The notes below the pieces were generated by a model. It saw only the letters and a program-made list of their open reading frames with translations. It did not search any database and was not told the origin of the DNA. From Candidatus Saccharimonadales bacterium (GTDB lineage: Bacteria > Patescibacteriota > UBA1384 > 2-12-FULL-50-11): DNA of 64,000 nucleotides. Position 1 is the first letter of the stretch; every line of letters begins with the position of its first letter. The stretch covers positions 26,845 through 90,844 of the forward strand of contig DATIHX010000008.1 in assembly GCA_035480235.1 (NCBI GenBank), in the 5' to 3' direction. Positions 8,789-59,990 of this stretch are shown piece by piece. Made by a program: the position numbers and the translations under genes.

Positions 8789-9796
8789 ATGTTACGTCGA
8801 GTGGGAGTGGATTTAGGCACTAATAATATCCTTATTTACGTACCCGGGCAGGGGATTGTGATCGACGAACCGGCCGTGGCGGCACTTGATGCCTACGACA
8901 ATAAAGTGGTGGCTTTCGGCGAAGAAGCCCGCAAAATGCTCGGTAAAACGCCGGACAGTATTATTGCAGCCCGACCTTTGCGCGACGGTGTGATCGCCAG
9001 CTTCAAAATTACCGAAGCGATGCTGCGCTATTTTATTAATAAACTCTCCGGCCGGGTTCGGTTGTTTCGGCCGGATATTATGGTAGCCGTGCCGGTCGGG
9101 GCCACTTCTACCGAGCGCCGGGCCGTCATTGACGCCTGCGTCGCGGCTGGCGCCAAAAACGCCTACATCATTAAAGAACCGGTCGCGGCGGCGCTTGGCG
9201 CGGCTGTCCCGATTACTACCGCCGAAGGCCACTTAATTATTGATATCGGCGCCGGCACCACCGAAGTCGCCGTGATTTCTTTGGGCGATGTAGTGGCCGC
9301 TACCTCAGTCCGGGTCGGCGGCAACAAAATGGATGTAGCGATCGCCAACTTCATCCGCAAAAAATATTCGCTGATTATCGGCGAGCCGACGGCCGAAAAC
9401 CTCAAAATCAAAATCGGGACGGCGATGCCGCTGAAAAAAGAACTGACGATGGAACTCTCCGGCGCCAACTCGGTGACCGGATTGCCGGAATCGGTCTTGG
9501 TTAACTCAACTGATGTAATGACCGCCGTTCAGGAAGAACTGAAAGAAATTATCGGCGCCGTCAAATCGGTCTTGCAAAAAACGCCGCCGGAATTGGCCGC
9601 CGACATTATGGACAAAGGTATGATTATGACCGGTGGGGGATCGATGCTGAAAAACCTCGACGCCTTATTTACGAAAGTTACCGGCGTGCCCTGCCAGCTG
9701 GCCGAAGAACCGCGGCTCTGTGTGGTTAAAGGTACTGGTATCGCCGTGGAACACCTGGACGAATACGTGAGGTCGGTCTTTTGGACGAAGCGTTAA
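8789..9796 (+). CDS. mreB: Rod-shape determining actin homolog MreB/Mbl.
   Basis: VGVDLGTNN...ARPLRDGVIA...IDIGAGTTEVAV blocks. Confidence 0.9.
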   Translation: MLRRVGVDLGTNNILIYVPGQGIVIDEPAVAALDAYDNKVVAFGEEARKMLGKTPDSIIAARPLRDGVIASFKITEAMLRYFINKLSGRVRLFRPDIMVAVPVGATSTERRAVIDACVAAGAKNAYIIKEPVAAALGAAVPITTAEGHLIIDIGAGTTEVAVISLGDVVAATSVRVGGNKMDVAIANFIRKKYSLIIGEPTAENLKIKIGTAMPLKKELTMELSGANSVTGLPESVLVNSTDVMTAVQEELKEIIGAVKSVLQKTPPELAADIMDKGMIMTGGGSMLKNLDALFTKVTGVPCQLAEEPRLCVVKGTGIAVEHLDEYVRSVFWTKR

Positions 9797-17791: not shown

Positions 17792-18100
17792 ATGAATATG
17801 AAACGGATTTCTACAAAGTTTTTCCTCGCCGCGATCGGCGTCTTTGTCCTTTGGTCGCTACTCGGTCCGATCGCCACGAATAACGACCCCTACGTCGTCT
17901 TGGCCTGGCCGAATCCGCTTTTCGTCGGTTCGCTCGTTCTCGGGCTTTTAGGTTTTATTGCCCTTCAGAATGAAACCCAGCAACAGCTCAACGTTGAGCG
18001 TTGCCGTCAAAATAAGCTCGAAGAAAAGCTTCAGCCGCTTGATGACGAAGTAGCAGAGTCGGTCCTTTGGGCCCGAACTCGTCAAGCTTTGGGGATCTAA
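17792..18100 (+). CDS. Small membrane protein, hypothetical.
   Basis: Two predicted TM helices and an RBS. Confidence 0.4.
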   Translation: MNMKRISTKFFLAAIGVFVLWSLLGPIATNNDPYVVLAWPNPLFVGSLVLGLLGFIALQNETQQQLNVERCRQNKLEEKLQPLDDEVAESVLWARTRQALGI

Positions 18101-38669: not shown

Positions 38670-39212
38670 TTATTCAGCTAGGACTAGCGGCGGCGAGAAG
38701 TGTCCAAGCAAACCGCCTCGATACTCTGAGTGGAAGGGGAGATTTATTTCGGTTGCGGAGCAGAAAATTGATTCATCGCCACCAAACCACTCGAACCCCT
38801 TTGAAGACTTGCTTTTGTGTGGATCGAGTCTATTGCGGTACCTCATACCGTCCATTTCGAATTCCATCGGCCCAAGGCCATTCAACCAAGCCCCGTGCCT
38901 TTTCCATCGTTCAAAAGCTTCCTCTAATGCAAATGCTCTCAAGGCGAGAACATTTTGGTCATTTTTCACGCACCAACCATGTAAATCCATATACCAAAGA
39001 GGTACAGAGTCCTTGGTAATAATTGTTCTCTCTAGCTTACACTCCATCGCTGCTGGCAGTCTTATGTGAGTGAAACTAAGACTCCCCTTGACGTACACTT
39101 GACCGCCCACGAGCGTCTCTTGTATCTTCCCCGAGCGTGACCGTCTCATTCCCAGAAAATAGAACTCTTGCAGCTCTAAGATTTCACCGCTATTCATGTG
39201 CAGCTCCTTCAA
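38670..39212 (-). CDS. Hypothetical protein, an orphan on the minus strand between ftsZ and nrdJ.
   Basis: ORF only. Confidence 0.4.
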   Translation of the reverse strand: MKELHMNSGEILELQEFYFLGMRRSRSGKIQETLVGGQVYVKGSLSFTHIRLPAAMECKLERTIITKDSVPLWYMDLHGWCVKNDQNVLALRAFALEEAFERWKRHGAWLNGLGPMEFEMDGMRYRNRLDPHKSKSSKGFEWFGGDESIFCSATEINLPFHSEYRGGLLGHFSPPLVLAE

Positions 39213-39404: not shown

Positions 39405-42400
39405 ATGGCGAAGGGACAAAGTGAGAATCGAGCGGCCGAAATTGCGTTGCAACCGGTGGAAATTTCCATCGAATTGCCGGGTAACGAAGCGAAAAAGAAA
39501 AAGACCGGTTTGAAGGTTAATCGCCGCTACACCAAGCCAGGTGAAGACGTCTTTGGTCAAATCGCTTGGGAAAAACGGACCTCGTTAATCACCGACGAAA
39601 AGGGCAACGTTATCTCCCAAATTACCGACCTGGAAATCCCTTCTACTTGGTCGCAGCTGGCCACCGATATTATCGCTTACAAATACCTCCGCAAGGCCGG
39701 CGTCCCCACGCCAGAAGGCCGGGAAACTTCCGCTAAACAGGCCGTTTACCGGATCGCTCACACGATGGCCGATTTCGGCGAAAAGTTCGGCTACTTTGCC
39801 ACCAAAGAAGACCGTCAGACCTTTGAAGACGAGCTAACCCATCTATTAATCAACCAAAAGGCCGCTTTCAATTCGCCGGTTTGGTTTAACTGCGGTTTGT
39901 ATCACCAATATAAAATTGAGGGCTCGGGCGGCTCGTTCTACTGGGACTTCAAAGAAGACAAAGTCTTGCCAGTGAAATACGGCTATCGCAACCCGCAGTG
40001 TTCGGCTTGCTTTATTTTAGCCGTCAAAGACACGCTGCCCGGCATTTTCGACGCTTTGAAAACCGAATCGCACATCTTTAAGTACGGTTCCGGTTCGGGC
40101 GCCAATTTCTCCACCTTACGGAGTAAATACGAAAAACTTTCGGGCGGCGGCACTAGCTCGGGCATGATGGCTTTTTTGCGGGTTTTTGACCGCGGCGCTG
40201 ACGCCGTTAAATCCGGCGGTACCACCCGCCGAGCGGCCAAAATGGTGGTGGTGAATATGGACCACCCCGAGATAGTAGAATTTATTAACTGGAAAGTTAA
40301 CGAAGAGAAAAAAGTTCAAGCCTTAATTAATGAAGGTTACTCGGCGGATTTTAACGGCGAAGCTTATCACACCGTTTCGGGCCAAAACGCCAACAACTCG
40401 GTGCGAATATCTGATGAATTTATGAAGGCCTACGAGCAAGACGGCGAGTGGAGCACCGTTTTCAAAACGACCGGCCAGGTCCACAAAACCTACAAAGCCC
40501 GGGAGATGATGGATATGATCGCCAACGCCGCTTGGCAGTGCGCCGACCCGGGGGTGCAGTTTGACACGACGATTAACGAGTGGCACACGTCTCCTAACAC
40601 TGATCGGATTAACGCTTCGAACCCGTGTTCGGAGTATATGTTCCTAGACGAAAGTGCTTGCAACCTGGCGTCGATCAACCTGGCAAAATATATTAATGAA
40701 GACGGCCAGTTTGACGTGGCTGGCTACCGCCACGCCGCCAGGATCATGTTCATCGGCCAAGAAATTGCCGTAGACTTGTCGAGTTACCCAACCGACCCAA
40801 TCGCCAAGAACTCCCACGATTACCGCCCGCTCGGCCTGGGCTACGCCAACCTTGGGACGCTTTTGATGCTCCGCGGCGTGCCGTACGACTCGCCAGAAGG
40901 TGCCGCTATCGGCGGGGCGTTAACGGCCATCATGACCGGCCACGCCTATAAGACTTCCGCGGAGATGGCCGCTGTTAAAGGCCCGTTCGCTGGTTTTATG
41001 AAAAACCGGGCGCCGATGCTGAATGTGATGAAGAAACACCGGGCGGCCGCTTACCGGATCAACGAAAAATACTGCCCAACCGAGATGTTGAACGCCGCTC
41101 ATCAGGACTGGGACGAAGCGGTAGCGTTAGGCGAGCAATTTGGTTACCGGAACGCCCAGGCCACGGTGATCGCCCCAACCGGCACGATCGGTCTTTTGAT
41201 GGACTGCGACACCACCGGCGTGGAACCGGACTTTGCCTTAGTGAAGTTCAAAAAACTGGCCGGCGGCGGCAGCATGAAAATCGTCAACAACGCCGTGCCA
41301 AAAGCCTTAAGTAACTTGGGTTACAATCCTGAACAGCAAAAAGAAATTATCGACTACGCTTTGGGCACTGGCACCTTGAACGGCAACACACCAATCAACC
41401 GGACATCTTTGCTAGCCAAGGGCCTAACCGACGTTGAACTGGACGCTGTGGAAAAAACTTTGCCAACCGCTTTCGACATTAACTACAGCTTCAACCGCTA
41501 CGTGCTGGGCGACGCCGCCATGGAGAAACTGGGCATTACCGCCAAAGACGAAGAGAAAAGCGACTTTTCCGTTTTGCGGAAGCTCGGCTTCGCTGAGTCG
41601 GAAATCAACCAGAGTAATGAGAAAATTTGCGGCACCCAGATGCTGGAAGGCGCCCCAAACCTGAAAAAAGAACACTACGCCGTGTTTGACTGCGCCAATA
41701 AGTGCGGCCAACGGGGGACCCGTTACATCGAAGCGATGGGCCACGTCCGGATGATGGCGGCCGTCCAGCCGTTTATTTCTGGAGCGATCTCTAAAACTAT
41801 CAACCTGCCGAACGACGCCACGGTGGAAGACGTAAAAAATGTCTATATTCAGTCGTGGAAACTCGGGCTGAAAGCCTTGGCACTGTACCGCGACGGCTCC
41901 AAACTTTCCCAACCGTTGAACGCCAGCCGCGACAAAGACGTTGAAGACAAAGAGGCCGCGCCGGTCGTTGCCGCCGTTAATGGCGTCCCGCACCGCCGCC
42001 GAATGCCGGACGACCGCCAAGCCATCACCCACAAATTCCGGATCGCTGGCCACAAAGGCTACATAACGGTTGGCTTGTTCGAGGACGGAACGCCGGGCGA
42101 GATCTTCATCACCATGGCTAAGCAGGGCAGCTTGATCTCGGGCCTGATGGACGCTTTCGCCACCTCGTTCTCGATCTCTTTGCAGTACGGCGTGCCGCTC
42201 TCGATCTGGGTGAGGAAATTTATCAACAGCCACTACGAACCGTACGGTTTTACGAGTAACCCGCAGATCCGGATCGCCAAATCGTTCACCGACTACATCG
42301 TCCGCTACCTGGCCATTAAGTTCTTAAGCAATGAAGAGCTAGATGAGCTAGGGATTAAAGTAGAAGGCGCCGGCCCGGCTCAAGCGGCCTTGTTTGAAGT

Positions 42401-42638
42401 ACCCCAACCGCCAGTGAGTGAAGCGAAAACCGTAGCCGCGCCAGAAGTACTGGCAACCGATCCGCTGCCAGTCGGTACAGCGGTAGAGAGCACGAGCGGT
42501 TTGCCGGAAGAACTGCCGGTGATGCCGGCCGCCCAAAGCGACGCGCCACCTTGCGCCACTTGCGGCTCAATGACCACCAAAACCGGCACCTGCTACACCT
42601 GCCTCTCCTGTGGCTCCACCACCGGCGGCTGCTCGTAG
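39405..42638 (+). CDS. nrdJ: Class II (adenosylcobalamin-dependent) ribonucleotide reductase with a C-terminal zinc-ribbon tail.
   Basis: NPCSEYMFLDESACNLASINL active-site block. C-terminal CATCGS...CYTCLSCGS. Confidence 0.92.
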   Translation: MAKGQSENRAAEIALQPVEISIELPGNEAKKKKTGLKVNRRYTKPGEDVFGQIAWEKRTSLITDEKGNVISQITDLEIPSTWSQLATDIIAYKYLRKAGVPTPEGRETSAKQAVYRIAHTMADFGEKFGYFATKEDRQTFEDELTHLLINQKAAFNSPVWFNCGLYHQYKIEGSGGSFYWDFKEDKVLPVKYGYRNPQCSACFILAVKDTLPGIFDALKTESHIFKYGSGSGANFSTLRSKYEKLSGGGTSSGMMAFLRVFDRGADAVKSGGTTRRAAKMVVVNMDHPEIVEFINWKVNEEKKVQALINEGYSADFNGEAYHTVSGQNANNSVRISDEFMKAYEQDGEWSTVFKTTGQVHKTYKAREMMDMIANAAWQCADPGVQFDTTINEWHTSPNTDRINASNPCSEYMFLDESACNLASINLAKYINEDGQFDVAGYRHAARIMFIGQEIAVDLSSYPTDPIAKNSHDYRPLGLGYANLGTLLMLRGVPYDSPEGAAIGGALTAIMTGHAYKTSAEMAAVKGPFAGFMKNRAPMLNVMKKHRAAAYRINEKYCPTEMLNAAHQDWDEAVALGEQFGYRNAQATVIAPTGTIGLLMDCDTTGVEPDFALVKFKKLAGGGSMKIVNNAVPKALSNLGYNPEQQKEIIDYALGTGTLNGNTPINRTSLLAKGLTDVELDAVEKTLPTAFDINYSFNRYVLGDAAMEKLGITAKDEEKSDFSVLRKLGFAESEINQSNEKICGTQMLEGAPNLKKEHYAVFDCANKCGQRGTRYIEAMGHVRMMAAVQPFISGAISKTINLPNDATVEDVKNVYIQSWKLGLKALALYRDGSKLSQPLNASRDKDVEDKEAAPVVAAVNGVPHRRRMPDDRQAITHKFRIAGHKGYITVGLFEDGTPGEIFITMAKQGSLISGLMDAFATSFSISLQYGVPLSIWVRKFINSHYEPYGFTSNPQIRIAKSFTDYIVRYLAIKFLSNEELDELGIKVEGAGPAQAALFEVPQPPVSEAKTVAAPEVLATDPLPVGTAVESTSGLPEELPVMPAAQSDAPPCATCGSMTTKTGTCYTCLSCGSTTGGCS

Positions 42639-42698
42639 GGGAAAGTTTCAAAAGGGGACTCTCGCCAAGCGGGTCCTGCTTTTGATACAAGGAGGTTA

Positions 42699-43247
42699 AT
42701 GGCTAAAATCTATACTCGTGGCGGCGATAAAGGCCAAACTGGTTTGCCGGGCGAGCGGCGGGTGAGTAAAACCGATCAGCTATTTGAAGTGTTGGGCTTC
42801 TTAGATCAAACCAACGCCCAGATCGGGCTGGCAATTAGTCTGGCGCGGCAAGAAAAAGACGAAAATCCAGTACCCACACTGGAAAGAGTGCAAAGAATGT
42901 TGCTAACTATTGGTTCGGCGCTGGCCAGCGAGGCTGGATTTCAAGAGACGATCCTCCAAAAATTGACCACCGAAGTAACGTGGATGGAGGGGGTGATAGA
43001 CAAGCTCGATGAAGAGTTGCCTCTGCTGAGAAACTTCATACTAGTTGGCGGCACGCCGGCTGGCGCCACGCTTCATTTGGTGCGAACGAGCGTCCGGCAG
43101 ACCGAGCGGCAATTCCACCGGTTGGGCGGGAAGCAAAAGCCGGCTGAAGCCGCTCAATACTTAAACCGCCTCAGCGACTTCTTTTTCCAGATTGCCCGGT
43201 ACTACAACTTTAAGCACAACCGCAAAGAGGCCATCTGGAAACCCTAA
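42699..43247 (+). CDS. pduO: PduO-type ATP:cob(I)alamin adenosyltransferase.
   Basis: MAKIYTRGGDKGQTGL...RVSKTD N-terminus. Confidence 0.85.
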   Translation: MAKIYTRGGDKGQTGLPGERRVSKTDQLFEVLGFLDQTNAQIGLAISLARQEKDENPVPTLERVQRMLLTIGSALASEAGFQETILQKLTTEVTWMEGVIDKLDEELPLLRNFILVGGTPAGATLHLVRTSVRQTERQFHRLGGKQKPAEAAQYLNRLSDFFFQIARYYNFKHNRKEAIWKP

Positions 43248-43269
43248 ACTAGAATTCGCCGTAAAGCAC

Positions 43270-43498
43270 TTGACTGGTGAGAAAATATGTCGTACAATGT
43301 CCCCGTACATTAGAAGAGTTTTTTACGAGGTTAGTAGTACCGAGATGGGGCCCGATCCCCTCCCGTGGTTCTCGTCCCGGTACTACCAACTTCGTAAAAT
43401 GAACCGACTTCACCTAGCTCGGCCTCGGGCCTTTGGTGTAACTGCCGGGCCCCGTGTTTTGACGATCAGCTTCTAGTCAACACGGCGGCCCTTTTTTT
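43270..43498 (+). promoter_or_regulatory. Riboswitch-like leader: promoter TTGACT-17-TACAAT, a structured segment of about 150 nt, then a long terminator hairpin + TTTTTTT (43447-43498) ahead of the 43528 gene. The structured segment has a 9-bp stem GUAGUACCG/CGGUACUAC enclosing a GGGG-CCCGAU-CCCC hairpin.
   Basis: Seen directly. I do not recognise the aptamer class. Confidence 0.45.
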
Positions 43499-43527
43499 GC
43501 GCAAAAAATTTGGTAATGTGAAAACTC

Positions 43528-44067
43528 ATGGGGGAAACACCAAAGCCAACGGCTTTTTTATTGACGATTCTAGCGATATTCGGCCGTCTGTTGCCACACC
43601 CACCAAACTTCACGCCGCTGACTGGCGCGACGCTGTTTGGTGGCAGTAAACTCAGCCGTCCGCTTAATTATTTATTACCGCTCGGGGTGCTATTTCTGAC
43701 CGACTTTTTTTTGGGTTGGCACAAAACCATGCCTTACGTCTACGGTAGTTTTTTGCTGATCGCCGTGATGGGGGAGTGGGGCTTGAAAAAATCGTCGAGC
43801 CTCGGGCGAGTGGCCCTGTTTAGTTTAGCAAGTTCAGTTTTATTTTTTGTTATTACGAATTTTGGAGTTTGGCAAGTTGGTGGCTTGTACCCACATACAC
43901 TCATCGGCTTGAGCCAATCGTATATTATCGCTCTGCCATTTTTCCGAAACACGATACTGGGCGATTTGGTATTTTCAATGGGCTTTTTCGTGTTATACCA
44001 ATGGGCCGAGAATCGAGTGGTGGTCGCGAGATTTGACAAGAAAATTTTAAACTGGCTAGTTAGTTAA
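43528..44067 (+). CDS. Small polytopic membrane protein (about 5-6 TM, conserved LPHPPNFTP near the N-terminus). Possibly an ECF-S-component/vitamin-transporter-like protein.
   Basis: Hydrophobicity pattern and size. The function is inferred from context only. Confidence 0.5.
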   Translation: MGETPKPTAFLLTILAIFGRLLPHPPNFTPLTGATLFGGSKLSRPLNYLLPLGVLFLTDFFLGWHKTMPYVYGSFLLIAVMGEWGLKKSSSLGRVALFSLASSVLFFVITNFGVWQVGGLYPHTLIGLSQSYIIALPFFRNTILGDLVFSMGFFVLYQWAENRVVVARFDKKILNWLVS

Positions 44068-44077
44068 AAGGAGGGAA

Positions 44078-44362
44078 ATGGCAGAACCGCAGGTAAAATT
44101 GATAGACTTTTGGGCCGCTTGGTGCGGGCCGTGCAAAGTAATGAATCCGATCATTGAAGAAATTGAGGCTCAGTTCGCGGGTAAAATTGTGGTTGAAAAG
44201 ATTGATGTTGACGCGACTGAAAACCAAGAAGCGGTGGCTAAATATCGAGTAATGGCGATGCCAACGTATTTTGTTGTAAAAAATGGTGAGGTATTCGAAC
44301 AATTTGTCGGCGCTCAGAGTAAGACCACCCTTATTAACTCCATCAACAAAGCCCTTGGCTAA
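44078..44362 (+). CDS. trxA: Thioredoxin.
   Basis: WCGPC active site. Confidence 0.9.
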   Translation: MAEPQVKLIDFWAAWCGPCKVMNPIIEEIEAQFAGKIVVEKIDVDATENQEAVAKYRVMAMPTYFVVKNGEVFEQFVGAQSKTTLINSINKALG

Positions 44363-44392: not shown

Positions 44393-45526
44393 ATGCGACA
44401 GTGGGCTATTAAAAGTACTCGAATTGCCTATCAGTCGTTCCTGAAACCCGCCTTCTTCCAACAGAATCCTGAAGCTGTTCACCATCGAATTACTCGATTT
44501 GGGGAGAACCTGGGACGGAGCCAATTCTGGAAAAACGTCATCGGCCGACTCTTCAACGCAAGCAACCCAAAGTTGAGCCAAAAAGTTGCTGGGGTTGTAT
44601 TTAGTAACCCGATCGGGCTGGCAGCAGGTTTTGATTACGAAGCACGATTAACTCAAATCTTGCCGTTCATGGGCTTTGGTTGGCAAACAATTGGAACAAT
44701 TACAGCTCTGGCTAGCGGTGGCAACGCTTCGCCGCAGCTTGGCCGGCTACCCATCTCAAAATCGCTAATGGTTAACAAGGGCTTCCGAAACCTAGGGATA
44801 ACTCAGACGCTAATAAGATTGCGTGGGCTACGGTTCGTGCGGCCGGTTGGAATTTCGATCGGCCGCACCAATAACCCAGCTGTTGCGACGCTAGAGGCTT
44901 CAGTTAAAGATATCGTAACCAGCTTTCGCGAGGTAGAAAAGAATCGCGTCCCTTTTAGCTATTACGAGCTAAATATCAGTTGCCCAAATTTAGGAAAAGG
45001 CGCAAGTTTCTACGAAGTAAAAAACTTACGCGTCCTACTGACCCAACTCGATAAACTCAAACTCAGTCAGTCGGTCTTTATTAAAATGCCAATCACTCAA
45101 CCAAACGAAGTGGTCCAGCAACTACTTAAAGAAATCTGCCGCCACTCCATTACCGGGATAATTATCGGCAACGTCCAAACGGACCGAACGGTGCCCAGCC
45201 TCGACCCGGGCGAAGTTGCCAAATTCAAGATGGGCAATTTTAGCGGTAAGCCAACCCAAGCTCGGTCGGACGAGCTAATTGCGTTAGCGTACAAAAATTT
45301 TGGCAAAAAATTAGTGATCGTTGGCTGCGGCGGCGTTTTTAACGCCGAAGACGCTTACCAAAAAATCCAACTCGGTGCGACGCTTATTCAGATGATCACT
45401 GGCCTAATTTTTGAAGGCCCACAAGTTGTAACGGAAATTAACCTTGGGCTACTGAAGCTGCTGGAGCGCGACGGCTATAGAAATATCAGCGAAGCAATTG
45501 GGACTGAGACCTACTCGAAGCCTTGA
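44393..45526 (+). CDS. pyrD: Dihydroorotate dehydrogenase family with class-2-type N-terminal extension and architecture, but Cys at the catalytic-base position (NISCPN).
   Basis: NPIGLAAGFD, GFGWQTIGTIT...GN..PR, NISCPN and IVGCGGV blocks. Confidence 0.8.
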   Translation: MRQWAIKSTRIAYQSFLKPAFFQQNPEAVHHRITRFGENLGRSQFWKNVIGRLFNASNPKLSQKVAGVVFSNPIGLAAGFDYEARLTQILPFMGFGWQTIGTITALASGGNASPQLGRLPISKSLMVNKGFRNLGITQTLIRLRGLRFVRPVGISIGRTNNPAVATLEASVKDIVTSFREVEKNRVPFSYYELNISCPNLGKGASFYEVKNLRVLLTQLDKLKLSQSVFIKMPITQPNEVVQQLLKEICRHSITGIIIGNVQTDRTVPSLDPGEVAKFKMGNFSGKPTQARSDELIALAYKNFGKKLVIVGCGGVFNAEDAYQKIQLGATLIQMITGLIFEGPQVVTEINLGLLKLLERDGYRNISEAIGTETYSKP

Positions 45527-54545: not shown

Positions 54546-57500
54546 TTACAGCTCGTCGATCGGCTGAAAATCGTCAATTGGCGCTTTGGCGTCAACGGTT
54601 GTATTTGGCAGTTTTAAGCCGAGTTCGTCGGCCTTGTCCCAGGTAATTAGGTGCCCATTTTCGTCACTCGTCTCGCCTACTCCCCCACTCTGAACAGGTT
54701 GTGGTTCAGTGTTTTGATTCTCTTGGACAGTTGTTTCAACTTTCGGCTCCTCAACTTCAACCGAATTTGGCCCTGCTAGCGTTCCCCCGCCTGATAACTC
54801 CCCTGCTTCCGTTGGCGAGCTAACGGAGTACCATTTCCGATTAAAGCGATCGGAAAGCATCTCCAGTTTTCGGCCGGTCAGCGGTTCTTTTGGTTTTTCA
54901 CTCACTACTCCCCTATCCGCCGGCTGATTGGCCGGTTGATCGTCGGAGCGCTCTTCGACCGGTACTCCCCTATCGTCAAGGTTTTTTGGGGCCGACGCTG
55001 GCTCACTTTCCGCTTGTTCAACCGGTTGGTGCTCTAGTACTAGAGCACCGTTCGCTGGCACTTCCGATTCAGAAATTACCGGTGCCGTTGGCAAGACCGG
55101 AGTTGGCTTCGGGGTGACGATCCGCTCCCAATCTTGTTTGAGGCTTTTGGTTTTTTTATCTTCGTCGAGCGACAAGTTAACCGGTACCGACCAGTCGGTG
55201 ATGTAATCTTCCACGTCGGCGCGGGCAGTGGCGTACTGCTCTCGACTTCGTTCGATCACTAAATCTTTCAGCCGAGCTTTTTCTTCCGGCGGCGGTAAAG
55301 TAGCTGCTGAAAAAGCCGGTACCGTCACCCCATCGATCGCCATTTTCAAATAAATTTGGCGGTTCGGTAGATTAACTAAATCGTTGACGTCGAAAACCGG
55401 CTGGAACTCGTTTTTCATCGCTTCCGCGTCGCCCGAGCCCACCCGAAACGCGATCATCGTGCCGACGTTACCGAAGACGGCGTTGGCCACCGTTTCCGGC
55501 ATTTGGCTGATGTACTGGTTAATCATCACGAGATTGAGCCGATATTTGCGGGCTTCGGAAAGAATCGTCGCGAACGAATCGGTAGCGAAGTTTTGAAACT
55601 CGTCGACGTAGAGGTAGAAATCTCGGCGATCTTCTTCGGCCATATTGGTCCGGCTCATCGCCGCCAGTTGGATTTTGGTAATCAACATCGCGCCAAGTAA
55701 CGCCGAGTTGTCTTCGCCGATCTTACCGGTAGAAAGATCGGCTAGCAGGATTTTGCCGCCGTCCATGACTTGGCGAATGTCGAAAGCACTTTTCGGCTGG
55801 CCGACGATATTGCGGATAGTCGAGCTGGAGGTAAACTGGCCGACTTTATTTTGAATTGGGGCGATCGCTTCTTGGCGAAATTTTGGTTCGTATTTTTCGA
55901 ATTCGTTAATAAAGAAGTCTTTAACGACCGGGTCGTTAACGTTAGAAATAACTTGCCGGCGGTAAGCGTTATCGGTGAGGATTCGCATGACGCCGAGCAG
56001 GGTGGAATTGGGCGATTCTAAAAGAGCCAAAACCGAATTTCGTAAGATGTATTCCAGCCGCGGCCCCCAGCTCTCACCGAAGATTTTTTTGAAAATGCCG
56101 ACCACCCCAGATGCGACGACGTTGCGCATTTCCGGATCAACGTATTCCAGCACGTTAAAACCGATGGGGAAATGGTAATCGGCCGGCGAGAAATAAACAA
56201 CGTCGTTAACCCGTTCTTCGGGAATGAAATCTAAGATGTGGTCGATTAGTTCGCCGTGTGGATCCACCACCGCCACGCCGCGGCCTTCACGAATGTCGTC
56301 AAAAATCATGTTTTCCATCAGCGTCGATTTGCCGGTGCCGGTTTTGCCGATGATATAGCTGTGGAGGCGACGGTCTGGCTTTTTAATGCCGAATTTTTGT
56401 TCTTTGGCCCGGAAATTAACTTTCGCAAACACCGTTAACTCGTCAGCCGGGACGCTGCCGATTATCGGCAAATTAGCTGGCGGTTCGCCTTTTTTGCTGC
56501 CCGACCAAGCGATTTGTGGCGTCGCCACCGTTTGCGAAGGGAAATGGTAAATTGACGCCAGCTCGGTGATGTTGAAGAGCATGTCCGGCGCGCCAATCGC
56601 CCGGGCCTGGTACAAATCGATGGCGGCCGGGTCGTGAGAAATTTCTTTAGAAACGAAGGAATTAAGGTTAATACTATTGTATTGTTTGTAGGCGCCGATT
56701 AACTGCTCGAGTTTGGCGGTGGCAAAATTTGGGTCGCGGGCGATGGCCACCAGCCGAATCACCACTTCGAAACCGAGTTTAGTAATTTTTTCTTCGATCC
56801 CCTTGACCGCTTGCTGCTGCGAGCCGGTCAGCTCCTCTTTGTTATCTTTTTTCTCTTCTTTTTTCTCCGGCTCGGCGACTTTGCCGGTGAAAACCGCCCG
56901 GCCAAAATCCAGAACAAAAAGCAGTGATTTTTCACGAATTAACTCCGGCCAATGTTTGTGTTTCGGCGGTTTTTTGATGTTTTTTATCTCAGTTTCGCCT
57001 TGATCTTGCCAGTCGTCGTCAACCGGCCGGATGATGGTCTGAACCCAAAGCGACTCCCCTTCTCCGGCCGAACTTAATACGCCAGTGACGCCCGAGAGCG
57101 GATCAACTTCGAAATTTTGAAAAGTTTTAATTGGGTAGGTGCTCGGCCGCTTCAACGTTAGTTCGGTGGCGGCAACGGCGTTACCCTCGCTAAATTTGGC
57201 GTAATCTTCTTCGGCCGATAGTTCCTTGACATCAATGTTTGGGTACTGGGAGTAAATTTGGCTTAAAACAAAGTCTTTCAAGTCGGTGGGGACGTGAATA
57301 TAAAAAACGATATTTTGCTGGGTGTTAGCGATCTCAAAACTGATGCTCGGCTGGGCCTCGGCGTTAGTCCGAAAAATGCCGTGCAAGGCGGCAAAGAGCT
57401 GCTCGGCCGCTTGGGGAGTGCGCTCGTTATTGCGCGGCACGGCGATCGATAAAAGCTTGCTTTGGCCAGCCTCAACCGGCAACAACGGAACGTTTTGCTT

Positions 57501-57593
57501 AACTCGCAAGCGCCGGGTGGCTTGCCAAAAATATATCGCCCCCAGTAAAAAAAGGCCGATAAAACCGATATTAATGTAGGCGTAGAGTTGCAT
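54546..57593 (-). CDS. Membrane-anchored VirD4/TraG/TraD-like (FtsK-HerA superfamily) ATPase, paralog 2, with a C-terminal disordered acidic Pro/Glu/Val-rich tail of about 230 aa.
   Basis: N-terminal TM helix. Walker A GKTGTGKST, Walker B YLYVDEFQNF, followed by ARKYRLNLVMINQYISQ (TraG-D_C-like). Confidence 0.7.
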   Translation of the reverse strand: MQLYAYINIGFIGLFLLGAIYFWQATRRLRVKQNVPLLPVEAGQSKLLSIAVPRNNERTPQAAEQLFAALHGIFRTNAEAQPSISFEIANTQQNIVFYIHVPTDLKDFVLSQIYSQYPNIDVKELSAEEDYAKFSEGNAVAATELTLKRPSTYPIKTFQNFEVDPLSGVTGVLSSAGEGESLWVQTIIRPVDDDWQDQGETEIKNIKKPPKHKHWPELIREKSLLFVLDFGRAVFTGKVAEPEKKEEKKDNKEELTGSQQQAVKGIEEKITKLGFEVVIRLVAIARDPNFATAKLEQLIGAYKQYNSINLNSFVSKEISHDPAAIDLYQARAIGAPDMLFNITELASIYHFPSQTVATPQIAWSGSKKGEPPANLPIIGSVPADELTVFAKVNFRAKEQKFGIKKPDRRLHSYIIGKTGTGKSTLMENMIFDDIREGRGVAVVDPHGELIDHILDFIPEERVNDVVYFSPADYHFPIGFNVLEYVDPEMRNVVASGVVGIFKKIFGESWGPRLEYILRNSVLALLESPNSTLLGVMRILTDNAYRRQVISNVNDPVVKDFFINEFEKYEPKFRQEAIAPIQNKVGQFTSSSTIRNIVGQPKSAFDIRQVMDGGKILLADLSTGKIGEDNSALLGAMLITKIQLAAMSRTNMAEEDRRDFYLYVDEFQNFATDSFATILSEARKYRLNLVMINQYISQMPETVANAVFGNVGTMIAFRVGSGDAEAMKNEFQPVFDVNDLVNLPNRQIYLKMAIDGVTVPAFSAATLPPPEEKARLKDLVIERSREQYATARADVEDYITDWSVPVNLSLDEDKKTKSLKQDWERIVTPKPTPVLPTAPVISESEVPANGALVLEHQPVEQAESEPASAPKNLDDRGVPVEERSDDQPANQPADRGVVSEKPKEPLTGRKLEMLSDRFNRKWYSVSSPTEAGELSGGGTLAGPNSVEVEEPKVETTVQENQNTEPQPVQSGGVGETSDENGHLITWDKADELGLKLPNTTVDAKAPIDDFQPIDEL

Positions 57594-59990
57594 TTAAGTG
57601 GTGGGTTTAGCCGCTGAGGCGTTTGGGGCGAGGATTTGGACGGGGCCCTTGGCGTAGAGCGAACGGTTGTTGGCACGGATCCAGTTGGCCATCTCGACGG
57701 TTCCGGCGCCCGGCGTTTTCAGGCCGTTCATACTGAAGGGTTTGGTCGGCGTCAGATCCACCAGCAGTTTAACATATGTTTGAAAACGATCAAGATTAGT
57801 GAAGTCTTCGATCGTCAAACCGACCATCTCGCGGGCTAAGAATTCGGCGTCTTCGGCGCCGATGCGGTAACTAATGAGGGTGCCGACGTTGCCAATTACC
57901 GCGTCGCGGATTTTTTCCGTCAACTGGGCGAAGTACTGGTTGGTGATGTTTAAGCCCAGCCGATATTTGCGGGCTTCAGCCAAAATGGTGGCGAAGGTGT
58001 CGGTCGTAAAGTTTTGAAATTCGTCCACATAGAGGTAAAAGTCCTTACGATCAGTTTCGGCAATATTTGCTCGGCTAAAAGCGGCGATCTGAATTTTCGA
58101 AACCAAAATCAGGCCGAGCAAATTCGAGTTAATCTCGCCGATTTTGCCTTTAGCTAAATTAACAAAGAGGATTTTGCCGTCGTCCATCAGCTGCCGAAAA
58201 TTAAACGAGCTCTCTTTTTGGCCGATGATGTTGCGCATTAAATCGTTGGTCATAAAACGGCCAAATTTGGAGATGAAATAGTTGTACATCTCGGACTTGT
58301 GAAAATCGGCGGTTTTGGCCAGCTGCTGATCCCAGAAGGCTTTGACGACCGGATCGGTGAGATTGGCCACTGACGCGTCGCGGAAAGCGTCGTCGGTGAA
58401 GAGCCTTGGCAAGTCAATGAGCGTGCCGCCGCCCGGATTATTCATCACCGTTAAAGCAGCGTTGCGAGCCCAGTGCTCCCACTGCGGGCCGACGATACCG
58501 GTGCGGTTCGGGTCGAAAAGTTTGTAGAAAATTTCAATCACTTCTTGAATTAAGAAATCGCGTTCCTCGGGTTTTTGATACTCCAGCAAGTTCAAGCCAA
58601 ACGGGTATTGAGTGTCGGATGGGTCGAATAAAACCACGTCTTTAGCCCGTTCGGTCGGGACTTTCTTGAGGAGCGACTCGATAGCGTCGCCAAGTGGGTC
58701 GATGAAACACAGGCCTTTGCCGGCCGCCATATCTTGCTCGATCATTGTCTCAAACAGCGTCGTTTTACCGACGCCGGTTTTCCCAATCATAAAAATGTGG
58801 CGGCGGCGATCTTCATCTTGCAGGCGGACGTATTGTTTGACGCTGCGGTAGACCGATTCGCCGATGACGATGCCGGCTTTCGGTAAGTTGGCCGGCGCTG
58901 GCAATTTTTTCGCCCCCACCCATTTGACGCCGGGGGTTTCGAGAACGCGGGTGGGTAGATGGAAGAGGCTGGACAACTCCTCGACGTTCAAAAGCATTTT
59001 CGGGGCGCTATTAAACGAGCGCAACAAATACTCCCGGCTGATTTTTTGGCCGGTGGTTTTGCGGTATTTCAAACTATTATATTGCGGCGCGTAAAACTGC
59101 GAGAAAGCGCTAATAATGGTGGTCAGCCCGGCAGCGGCCGAAGCGTCGTCTTTGTCGGTGACGACCACCCGCAACACCGCCTCAAAACCGGTTTTACTGC
59201 CCTTTTCTTGCAAACCTTTCAAGAGCATCTCTTGTTCGGGGCTGACTTTTAAATCTTTGATCGGCGCGGTCGGTTTGACGACTTCGCCGATCTGGCCCAA
59301 AACTCGGGCGGTGCCGGTGCGGTTGACGAGATGGGCCTTGCCTTGCTGGACGTGGCCGGCAGCGATGTTGGTGTGCAGCCGCCAGTTTTCGCCGGTCGGC
59401 CGGATTAGTAGTTGAATCGCCGCGCCGTACGGCAGTTTAGTCATGGCGTTAGTGATCGCTTGGAGCGGATCGGCTTCCAGCGTTTGGTAGGTTTTAATCG
59501 GCAAGACAAAGTTTTTAGCCTGTTGGAAGATTGCCCCTGCCACCACCGGCGTTTCTTTGGTGAATAAACGCGGCGGCGGGCCAAGGGTAATTTCAGCGTG
59601 GGGAAAGTAACTTTGGAGCTGCCGTTCGATCACCTGCTGGACGCGCTTGGGTGCGACAATAGCGAAACTAATAACACCGCCCGAGGAGATAATTTCAAAA
59701 CTGACGTGGGCCGGGTTGCTGAAAAGCCAGTCGAGGAAGTTGCGCTGGTGAATAATGGTGGTGAGCGAGCCGAAAAATTGCTCCATCGGCGCGATCAGAT
59801 CTTTGAAATCCTTGACCGGTTCGTTGACCGATTTGTCGTCACGCTGATTGTCGCGCGGTAGTGAAACCAGCATACAAACCAGGCTGCCGGTGTCGGTGAG
59901 ATCTTCCCGGCGCTGAAAAAACCGAACCAAGAGCATCAAGGCCAGCGGCACCAACACAATAATAAGTAAAATGATGACCAGCGCGCTCAT
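57594..59990 (-). CDS. Membrane-anchored VirD4/TraG/TraD-like ATPase, paralog 1.
   Basis: N-terminal TM helix. Walker A GKTGVGKTT, Walker B YLYVDEFQNF, RKYRLGLNITNQYFAQ. It abuts paralog 2 (stop and start are adjacent). Confidence 0.7.
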   Translation of the reverse strand: MSALVIILLIIVLVPLALMLLVRFFQRREDLTDTGSLVCMLVSLPRDNQRDDKSVNEPVKDFKDLIAPMEQFFGSLTTIIHQRNFLDWLFSNPAHVSFEIISSGGVISFAIVAPKRVQQVIERQLQSYFPHAEITLGPPPRLFTKETPVVAGAIFQQAKNFVLPIKTYQTLEADPLQAITNAMTKLPYGAAIQLLIRPTGENWRLHTNIAAGHVQQGKAHLVNRTGTARVLGQIGEVVKPTAPIKDLKVSPEQEMLLKGLQEKGSKTGFEAVLRVVVTDKDDASAAAGLTTIISAFSQFYAPQYNSLKYRKTTGQKISREYLLRSFNSAPKMLLNVEELSSLFHLPTRVLETPGVKWVGAKKLPAPANLPKAGIVIGESVYRSVKQYVRLQDEDRRRHIFMIGKTGVGKTTLFETMIEQDMAAGKGLCFIDPLGDAIESLLKKVPTERAKDVVLFDPSDTQYPFGLNLLEYQKPEERDFLIQEVIEIFYKLFDPNRTGIVGPQWEHWARNAALTVMNNPGGGTLIDLPRLFTDDAFRDASVANLTDPVVKAFWDQQLAKTADFHKSEMYNYFISKFGRFMTNDLMRNIIGQKESSFNFRQLMDDGKILFVNLAKGKIGEINSNLLGLILVSKIQIAAFSRANIAETDRKDFYLYVDEFQNFTTDTFATILAEARKYRLGLNITNQYFAQLTEKIRDAVIGNVGTLISYRIGAEDAEFLAREMVGLTIEDFTNLDRFQTYVKLLVDLTPTKPFSMNGLKTPGAGTVEMANWIRANNRSLYAKGPVQILAPNASAAKPTT

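Follow-up and report, generated by a model that had tools for sequence, protein, structure and literature searches.

The DNA analyzed here is a 64-kb stretch of contig DATIHX010000008.1 from a Candidatus Saccharimonadales bacterium (the window, by which we mean this whole stretch), and the locus of interest within it is made up of four same-strand genes and one 280-nucleotide (nt) intergenic region. On the + strand, the genes encode a class II (adenosylcobalamin-dependent) ribonucleotide reductase (RNR) of 1077 amino acids (aa) (nrdJ, 39405 to 42638), a PduO-type cob(I)alamin adenosyltransferase of 182 aa (pduO, 42699 to 43247), a 179-aa DUF6580 membrane protein with a predicted energy-coupling factor (ECF) S-component-like fold (43528 to 44067), and a 94-aa thioredoxin (trx, 44078 to 44362). 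The gap between pduO and DUF6580 holds a long hairpin with an invariant C-rich loop, and comparative analysis indicates that the RNA encoded there is genuine, with conservation across 18 distinct relatives.

All three enzymes, like DUF6580, belong to families already known. As a preliminary description of this DNA had claimed, the gene at 39405 to 42638 is a class II nrdJ: its product scores above the NCBIfam cutoffs of NF005122 (1327.5 bits; cutoff, 859) and TIGR02504 (588.9 bits; cutoff, 400), with an equivalog among these matches, and it carries the class II N-terminal domain (Ribonuc_red_2_N, PF08471) as well as a match to PF02867. Directly after it, again as described, lies a gene whose product matches PF01923 (E = 7.9e-48, 163 bits; cutoff, 24) and TIGR00636 (135.9 bits; cutoff, 108.45), which identifies it as a PduO-type ATP:cob(I)alamin adenosyltransferase. 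The thioredoxin was assigned by PF00085 (E = 4.9e-24) and by its synteny in all relatives, and it is likely the reductant of NrdJ. Every close relative that we fetched has the order nrdJ, pduO, a gap of 240 to 330 nt, DUF6580, and trx, and a DUF6580 protein identical to that of the window is recorded from a "Candidatus Saccharimonadales bacterium" metagenome-assembled genome. The adenosylcobalamin (AdoCbl) salvage module proposed in the preliminary description is real. A Pfam survey of the window's other larger open reading frames (ORFs) returned housekeeping genes and no further B12 enzyme, btu or cbi gene, or ECF module; the check for such genes, which had been raised for the genome, thus covers the 64 kb of the window. 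The locus may be viewed as a self-contained deoxyribonucleotide-synthesis module that would run on scavenged B12, with NrdJ, the PduO-type adenosyltransferase, DUF6580 as the likely corrinoid importer, and thioredoxin as its parts.

A conserved hairpin with an invariant C-rich loop

The preliminary description had placed a structured aptamer of about 150 nt, closed by a 9-bp P1 stem, upstream of the membrane protein gene. Strong structure is indeed present: the minimum free energy of the whole leader has a z score of -3.9 and is better than that of all 200 shuffles. When the gap regions of relatives were aligned, a single conserved element emerged, the long hairpin at 43321 to 43399 (+ strand), which was found both as an inverted repeat and with covariance models. 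Neither the linker that follows nor the proposed P1 stem (43319 to 43327 with 43500 to 43508) is conserved among relatives, and this part of the earlier proposal was not confirmed. The window hairpin alone has a folding z score of -5.8. Its lower stem includes GUAGUACCG paired with CGGUACUAC, and at its apex, a two-pair helix (C43353-G43365 and G43354-C43364) closes a 9-nt loop, AUCCCCUCC (43355 to 43363), with U43366 bulged on the 3' side.

Two covariance models, R1 and R2, for which 5 and 18 copies were used, respectively, together recover the hairpin in 18 distinct loci, always on the + strand, 60 to 230 nt upstream of DUF6580, and as one copy per locus; all 18 copies share the same synteny. 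(Loci fetched for comparison are referred to by L numbers.) Elsewhere in the 808 kb of DNA that was fetched, which takes in the remainder of the window and 70-odd other DUF6580 loci, no copy was found, and a search of all 95 sources with R2 added none. A deliberately narrow DNA-pattern scan of metagenomes yielded one true hit, identical to the L086 copy, and two chance hits in high-GC coding DNA. Among the fetched loci, the element is restricted to a clade whose DUF6580 proteins are at least about 49% identical to that of the window.

Each of the 18 copies folds by itself into a hairpin of 26 to 40 bp, with z scores from -4.6 to -8.9 and free energies from -31 to -53 kcal/mol, and in 16 of them the + strand hairpin is more stable than that of the - strand. 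Covariation among these homologous leaders, an analysis that the preliminary description had suggested, is extensive. In a MAFFT alignment made without fitting to the structure, paired cells account for 90.9%, compared with 33 to 46% when one arm is slid; 17 of the 20 hairpin pairs show changes on both sides across the 18 loci, and none of 500 shuffles reaches any of these measures. While the stems diverge in this way, the CCCCUCC of the loop is unchanged: the apical loop invariably consists of two variable bases followed by CCCCUCC (NN-CCCCUCC). The helix that closes it is C-G/G-C, or U-A/G-C in L003, L005, and L006, with the bulged U on the 3' side. A few lower-stem pairs are likewise invariant or nearly so, namely G22-C76 and G27-C71 (18/18 each) and U23-A75 (17/18). 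The loop region of the window copy, CGAUCCCCUCCCGU, resembles the anti-Shine-Dalgarno 3' end of 16S rRNA (GAUCACCUCC). A rigid stem combined with an invariant C-rich loop is a hallmark of loop-mediated RNA-RNA recognition.

The hairpin still lies directly upstream of DUF6580 in loci where pduO is separated from it, by about 1 kb of other DNA in L005 and by a gene for a 734-aa protein in L003/L100. The element is therefore associated with DUF6580 and trx rather than simply with the 3' end of the pduO transcript.

The hairpin is framed by predicted transcription signals

A consensus scan places a promoter ahead of the hairpin (P1, not to be confused with the P1 stem above), with TTGACT and TACAAT separated by 17 bp (43270 to 43298, + strand), in agreement with the preliminary description. 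All 18 related loci have this promoter, with TTGAC followed by T, C, or A (TTGATT in L003), a spacer of exactly 17 bp, and TAnnnT. Its -10 box ends 11 to 37 nt before the hairpin, except in L097, where an insertion of about 135 nt lies between promoter and C-loop hairpin (L097, 2723 to 2879). Transcription would start near 43305, giving the RNA a short single-stranded 5' leader (GUACAUUAGAAGAG..., 43305 to 43320, + strand), which, in the comparison of 18 leaders, shows weak conservation of CGUWAA and, after it, a purine-rich AGAG.

Downstream of the hairpin, a variable linker (43400 to 43446, + strand; absent in L001 and L097, 13 nt in L002, and up to about 100 nt elsewhere) leads to an apparent intrinsic terminator at 43447 to 43498 (+ strand), recognized as an inverted repeat followed by a T run. 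Its hairpin (43447 to 43490) has a stem of GGGCCCCGUGUU paired with AACACGGCGGCC and precedes the U7 tract (T7 at 43492 to 43498) that the preliminary description had also seen. At the equivalent place, 14 of the 17 other loci have a separate hairpin and T-rich run, those of L004 and L006 being weak; in L001 and L097, a U6 tract comes directly after the C-loop hairpin, which doubles as the terminator. Counting all four of these loci, an intrinsic terminator lies between the hairpin and the DUF6580 -10 box in about 16 of 18.

The gene downstream differs from what had been proposed. The preliminary description had assigned it a ribosome-binding site (RBS), yet the ATG at 43528 has no Shine-Dalgarno (SD)-like sequence ahead of it; 8 nt before it stands an extended -10 box instead, TGGTAATGT (P2, 43511 to 43519, + strand), as recognized from the conservation of TAnnnT. 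A TAnnnT is found 7 to 14 nt before the DUF6580 ATG in 18/18 loci (mean of shuffles, 5.7; maximum, 14/18), directly preceded by a TGn extension in half of them (9/18), and an SD-like sequence is absent in 16/18 and present in 2/18. Since a -10 box lies 8 nt before the ATG and no SD is present, the DUF6580 mRNA is probably leaderless, or nearly so, and transcribed from P2. Of 35 window genes with Pfam support, 10 or 11 have the same geometry of TAnnnT before the start codon (mreB, ftsA, and Ham1 among them), and only 9 have an SD; the SD-led genes include nrdJ, pduO, and trx. Starts with TAnnnT (often TGnTAnnnT) at a distance of 6 to 12 nt and no SD are found at 8789, 27094, 33508, 36085, 43528, 50394, 51465, 62057, and others. 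This suggests that leaderless mRNAs are widespread in this Saccharimonadales genome.

The element thus has what would be expected of an independent small RNA gene, with its own promoter in 18/18 loci, a terminator in about 16/18, and no conserved ORF. The predicted RNA is about 190 nt long in the window and about 100 to 140 nt in L002 and L001. The two promoters, the start without a leader, and termination were deduced from sequence and conservation, and taken most simply, they point to a discrete small RNA and, after it, a leaderless gene that is transcribed separately.

The RNA matches no curated family

The preliminary description had not recognized the leader as a known B12, thiamine pyrophosphate (TPP), or preQ1 riboswitch class, and the Rfam scan that it suggested bears this out. 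At gathering thresholds, Rfam finds only 3 tRNAs in the whole window. Within 43200 to 43580, at E ≤ 10, it returns two chance hits, to a microRNA and a long noncoding RNA, and no relevant family, riboswitch, or known housekeeping attenuator, the last of which had been named as an alternative. The cobalamin riboswitch models RF00174, RF01689, and RF01482 match neither the window at the gathering threshold nor 43200 to 43580 at E ≤ 10, and no known B12 riboswitch was found by this search anywhere in the hairpin-bearing loci. The same Rfam search does find cobalamin riboswitch families in 15 other DUF6580 loci. The 6C small RNA (sRNA) model RF01066 likewise has no match at E ≤ 10; the present RNA has one conserved C-rich-loop hairpin only. 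We found nothing in the searched literature on DUF6580, on riboswitches and cobalamin in Patescibacteria, or on structured RNA motifs in Saccharibacteria. By analogy, the RNA, which matches no curated family, would act most like a 6C-type C-rich-loop sRNA, but it falls outside that family as the family's model defines it.

Several other ways of reading the RNA were tried and rejected. A leader peptide could begin at 43344, the only AUG in the RNA of the window copy, and run through the loop, but the apical stem that carries this AUG is deleted in L084 and L002 and no ORF is conserved. An antiterminator of GGGGCCCG (43347 to 43354) with CGGGCCCC (43446 to 43453), a perfect 8-bp match in the window, is not retained in L082, L084, and L002, and the P1 stem of the proposed aptamer is dropped for want of conservation, as described above. 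Duplexes between the RNA and the 5' part of the DUF6580 coding sequence have z scores of about 0 and no consistent site in the 18 loci, and pairing of the loop CCCRU with the start codon region (AUGGG) fails in that the codons after AUG vary. A pseudoknot of the loop with the 5' purine run (AGAG/GGAG) would have its partner in most leaders, but it would comprise only 3 to 5 bp at variable positions; because the loop is invariant, covariation is uninformative here. Finally, a T-box, with Pro codons in the loop and a downstream UGGU, has no Rfam T-box hit, its UGGU lies within the -10 box, and the gene context is wrong.

DUF6580 is predicted to take up corrinoids

The 179-aa membrane protein (43528 to 44067), whose HPP-containing N-terminal motif was already evident in the preliminary description, belongs to Pfam family DUF6580 (PF20221; E = 1.8e-45, 155.5 bits; cutoff, 27). 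That motif, RLLPHPPNFTP, is common to 27 homologs, and in these 27 sequences R20, P23, H24, N27, D59, H65, Y72, N111, and W115 are invariant. An AlphaFold model of the protein (predicted local distance difference test score, 85.9) has the small six-helix membrane fold of an ECF S-component. In a Foldseek search of the PDB with this model, the best-scoring matches, ranks 1 to 7 and 9, are all S-components (probability ≥ 0.75; template modeling [TM] scores, 0.52 to 0.69), including FolT (4huq_S and 4z7f), ECF-FolT (7nnt_C; TM, 0.66 to 0.69), and BtuM (8c7p; TM, 0.65). The earlier suggestion that the protein is a cofactor uptake S-component holds up in the light of these fold matches, of a weak match of the DUF6580 profile to the 182-aa chain 6fnp_A (E = 0.0095, 18.9 bits; residues 9 to 87 only), and of the riboswitch association described below; the family has a link to a cofactor, rather than being an unrelated one. 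The chain 6fnp_A is named just "Membrane protein" in the hit table, and we take it to be CbrT, 6FNP presumably being the entry for the ECF-CbrT cobalamin transporter.

Compared with known B12 transporters, DUF6580 resembles CbrT, the S-component of the ECF cobalamin transporter (PDB 6FNP), in its size of about 180 aa and its predicted helical S-component fold, and its profile weakly matches 6fnp_A over the first 80 or so residues (E = 0.0095). It resembles BtuM, the solitary S-component-like B12 transporter (PDB 6FFV/8C7P), in the same size and in fold (TM, 0.65), and it shares a B12 genomic context with both; with FolT chains, the TM scores of the model are 0.55 to 0.69. However, DUF6580 is a separate Pfam family. 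The defining feature of BtuM is an invariant cysteine ligand of the corrin cobalt, Cys80 in the Thiobacillus denitrificans protein (PMC6072759). No cysteine is invariant or nearly invariant among the 27 DUF6580 sequences, which have invariant H24, H65, D59, and Y72 instead of this axial ligand, and the DUF6580 profile has no sequence-level match to BtuM; since the defining cysteine is absent, we excluded DUF6580 as a BtuM. No EcfT or EcfA gene lies within the 64-kb window, as judged by the Pfam survey of larger ORFs.

Genomic context is the strongest argument for a B12 role of DUF6580 as judged from comparisons across lineages. A Cobalamin or AdoCbl-II riboswitch lies within 4 kb on the same strand at 13 of 17 DUF6580 loci from other phyla and at 2 of 14 further loci from the candidate phyla radiation (CPR), or 15/31 overall. 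In L027, the riboswitch directly precedes DUF6580-pduO; in L024, the order is riboswitch, a DUF4430 gene, and DUF6580; and in L019, it is riboswitch, a DUF4430 gene, DUF6580, and pduO, an arrangement shared by several of these loci. pduO and class II RNR genes flank DUF6580 across many lineages. From this context of cobalamin riboswitches, pduO, class II RNR, and DUF4430, together with the modeled fold, we predict with considerable confidence that DUF6580 is a corrinoid (B12) uptake protein. The name DUF6580 is absent from the searched literature, and as far as that literature shows, the prediction of a corrinoid importer that is S-component-like, not BtuM, and not clearly CbrT is new.

DUF4430 genes stand directly upstream of DUF6580 in L031 (3430 to 3852), L077 (3505 to 3924), L063 (56 to 478), L024 (3587 to 3973), and L019 (3573 to 3947), with Pfam confirmation in L031, L063, and L077. 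Their products are small and secreted or membrane anchored, and they occur in many genomes of the CPR and of other groups, with an AdoCbl-II riboswitch often ahead of them; the clade of the window is without a DUF4430 gene. DUF4430 is presumably related to the B12-binding domain of transcobalamin-type proteins, and these proteins may be an extracellular B12-capture partner of DUF6580. In several loci, a cobalamin riboswitch lies just downstream of DUF6580 (L012, 4527 to 4599; L016, 4508 to 4672; L023, 5133 to 5210; L026, 5091 to 5228; and L030, 5115 to 5191), which in L023, L026, and L030 is also just after pduO. These riboswitches point into the next gene, and DUF6580 is therefore part of larger clusters with more than one B12 riboswitch-controlled unit.

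A base-pairing small RNA as the favored reading

The function that we favor for the RNA, tentatively and at somewhat less than even odds, is that of a small RNA that acts by base pairing on genes of the RNR module with an SD. P1 would drive an RNA of about 190 nt with a purine-rich 5' end, a very stable hairpin bearing the C-rich loop, and an intrinsic terminator, and P2, directly after the terminator, would transcribe DUF6580 as a leaderless mRNA. As in the actinobacterial 6C sRNA, the C-rich loop would pair with G-rich SD regions, the best candidate targets being nrdJ and trx, SD-led genes of the same module. The targets, the direction of regulation, and any link to the B12 level are conjectural.

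The predicted pairings are weak evidence for this reading. In the window, the segment made up of the loop and its 3' flank, CCUCCCGU, is a perfect complement of ACGGGAGG at the start of nrdJ, and this pairing also occurs in L081, L082, L084, and L089. The SD-led start region of the window nrdJ is AACGGGAGGUGAAAAGGGAUG, and that of trx, with a strong SD, is AAAGGAGGGAAAUG. When 57 start regions of the window are ranked by their pairing with a 16-nt loop segment, that of nrdJ comes 2nd (-19.5 kcal/mol; median, -8.5), and over nine loci, nrdJ ranks 1st or 2nd in 7/9 and trx 1st to 3rd in 7/9. The best predicted loop pairing in the window is that of a 103-aa ORF of unknown function at 17792 to 18100 (start region AGAGGGGAUGA, -20.9 kcal/mol), which may be a spurious ORF.

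The closest precedent is the 6C sRNA of Actinobacteria (B11, RF01066), whose C-rich hairpin loops bind G-rich ribosome-binding sites without a chaperone and whose targets include DNA replication genes (PMC6486639). The present RNA is alike in having a C-rich loop (CCCCUCC) on a stable hairpin followed by an intrinsic terminator, in belonging to a genome rich in predicted leaderless genes, and in that its best predicted target, nrdJ, serves DNA synthesis. Unlike 6C, which has several C-rich loops, it has one conserved hairpin and does not match the covariance model; it is also limited to a Saccharimonadales-like clade, always by DUF6580, and its targets are predicted. A second comparison is with anti-SD elements of Staphylococcus aureus and others. 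The UCCCCUG motif of the icaR 3' untranslated region and the C-rich motifs of RsaE/RoxS are single stranded, pair with the SD, and block translation. Likewise, the present hairpin can be the 3' end of an nrdJ-pduO transcript, with a loop complementary to the nrdJ SD region; it differs in having its own conserved promoter and in that another gene lies between the element and pduO in L003/L100.

Several points weigh against the base-pairing reading. Most of the complementarity to nrdJ and trx is of the generic anti-SD kind, no covariation is seen in the pairs that lie beyond the SD, and the complementarity that extends past the SD is missing in L086, L088, and L002. In L003/L100, the loop has CCCAU but the nrdJ region, UAAGGAGGG, has no AUGGG, and nrdJ ranks only 4th of 15; having checked this on L100, we rejected targeting specific to nrdJ. 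The 9-nt loop is closed by a strong helix, and pure loop pairing would leave the three near-invariant stem pairs unexplained. A trans-acting sRNA needs no fixed linkage to DUF6580, so some cis role is plausible, and the presence of a B12 riboswitch at the same position in other lineages keeps a B12-linked cis function alive. In addition, the small RNA, both promoters, and the leaderless start are themselves predictions from sequence alone.

Alternative explanations

One alternative, in line with the preliminary description, is a cis-acting riboswitch or attenuator of a new class, which would respond to B12 or another cofactor and use the terminator to control DUF6580. Its position matches that of the AdoCbl-II (RF01689) and Cobalamin (RF00174) riboswitches before DUF6580 or DUF4430-DUF6580-pduO operons in other phyla, with which it shares the order of promoter, structured RNA, and terminator; in all cases, a promoter precedes the element and DUF6580 comes after it on the same strand, and a terminator follows it in about 16/18 loci. 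Since the hairpin loci lack a known B12 riboswitch, any B12 control there needs another device, and the small HMP-PP riboswitch has a layout comparable to that of L001 and L097, in which the hairpin itself is the terminator. However, cobalamin riboswitches have a four-way junction and a B12 box, and the present RNA has neither: it is a single rigid hairpin without a match to the Rfam cobalamin models at E ≤ 10. Only a 9-nt loop and a few stem pairs are conserved, with no junction or internal-loop core for a corrinoid of 1.3 to 1.6 kDa, and a hairpin of 26 to 40 bp and -31 to -53 kcal/mol is too stable to switch. The linker and the proposed P1 stem are unconserved, and by eye, the 18 leaders show no conserved antiterminator that would serve as an expression platform mutually exclusive with the aptamer. 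Nor is an RBS evident after such a platform in most loci: 16 of the 18 DUF6580 genes have no SD, and all 18 have a -10 box of their own. A read-through mRNA would present an internal AUG without SD. What had been called a classic riboswitch architecture is therefore a conserved stable hairpin ahead of a gene with its own predicted promoter and no RBS, and we regard a cis riboswitch as decidedly improbable. A broader version strikes us as just as doubtful: in Saccharimonadales-like bacteria, the C-loop RNA would be a B12-linked regulatory RNA of a new kind that took the place of the cobalamin riboswitch and couples corrinoid supply to expression of the B12 importer and the RNR module. The RNA would sense corrinoid alone or with a partner, or its anti-SD-like loop would act on nrdJ and trx translation in a genome with many apparently leaderless genes.

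The invariant loop and the three near-invariant stem pairs amid covarying neighbors are typical of sequence-specific recognition, which fits a site for a protein or RNA polymerase (a C-rich-loop-binding KH protein, an RNase III substrate, or put/boxB-like antitermination) that affects DUF6580-trx read-through or RNA stability. The long, nearly perfect double-stranded stem and the promoter-proximal position upstream of terminators would suit such a site, yet the distance from the conserved stem box to the loop ranges from about 10 to 23 bp, which is awkward for a single footprint, no candidate gene for an RNA-binding protein is retained in the neighborhood, and DUF6580 has a predicted promoter of its own; on balance, we consider this unlikely. 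The hairpin and terminator could also lack a regulatory function, ending the nrdJ-pduO transcript and insulating the DUF6580 promoter, with the upstream promoter incidental. No terminator lies between pduO and the hairpin, and operon transcripts therefore run into it, and U6 follows the hairpin in L001 and L097. A plain terminator, however, would not keep an invariant loop of 7 to 8 nt across lineages whose DUF6580 proteins are only about 50% identical, nor, in 18/18 loci, a near-consensus promoter whose spacing is exactly 17 bp; a second terminator, apart from the hairpin, is present in most loci, and in L003/L100 the unit comes after a different gene rather than pduO. These features make a mere terminator very unlikely. 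Least credible, to the point of being barely worth entertaining, is a divergent housekeeping RNA (6S, signal recognition particle [SRP], or another universal small RNA) located here by chance. The strong conserved promoter, stable structure, and single copy per locus would fit, but there is no Rfam match at E ≤ 10, including to 6S, SRP, tmRNA, and RNase P, no stem joins the 5' and 3' ends, and the central bubble that 6S requires is missing. The element is confined to one clade among the fetched loci (DUF6580 at least about 49% identical), and it shows no GNRA loop or SRP domain IV motif.

Variation around the module and other features of the window

The interval between nrdJ and pduO varies among relatives. 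A gene for a MazG-like nucleotide pyrophosphohydrolase lies there in L086 (3836 to 4207), L088 (3745 to 4116), and L099, the last with both a MazG-like and a PNPOx-like gene (1419 to 1784 and 1792 to 2208); the window has no MazG-like gene, and L081 and L082 have small ORFs without a Pfam match. The nrdJ of L100 (CAYIGA010000007.1, 1877 to 6514) encodes 1545 aa and has an intein with HNH/NUMOD3 homing-endonuclease domains inside the RNR barrel domain. Between ftsZ and nrdJ, the window has a 180-aa ORF on the - strand (38670 to 39212) with a sub-threshold DUF5680 match and no NCBIfam hit, and this position holds different genes in relatives, such as a peptidase M3 gene. The ORF listed directly after thioredoxin, at 44393 to 45526, encodes a dihydroorotate dehydrogenase by Pfam. 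Elsewhere in the window, a large serine recombinase (Resolvase and Recombinase domains; 657 to 2204) ends beside a tRNA (2186 to 2258), and two adjacent large ORFs (54546 to 59990) have domains like those of TrwB/type IV secretion system coupling proteins; these are possible remnants of an integrative or conjugative element.

Implications

The intergenic element is a conserved noncoding RNA with strong covariation in Patescibacteria/CPR, and none such has been described for this group in the searched literature. Its predicted layout is an unusual tandem, in which a strong promoter, a small RNA, and a terminator are directly followed by a second promoter for a leaderless mRNA, at a place where other phyla have a riboswitch. 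For DUF6580, a family of at least 4,590 detectable members that is named only "putative transport protein," corrinoid uptake is now a testable function. If true, DUF6580 would be a B12 importer family beside BtuCDF, ECF-CbrT, and BtuM, and it would account for the way in which ultra-small epibiotic bacteria supply the only B12 enzyme visible in them.

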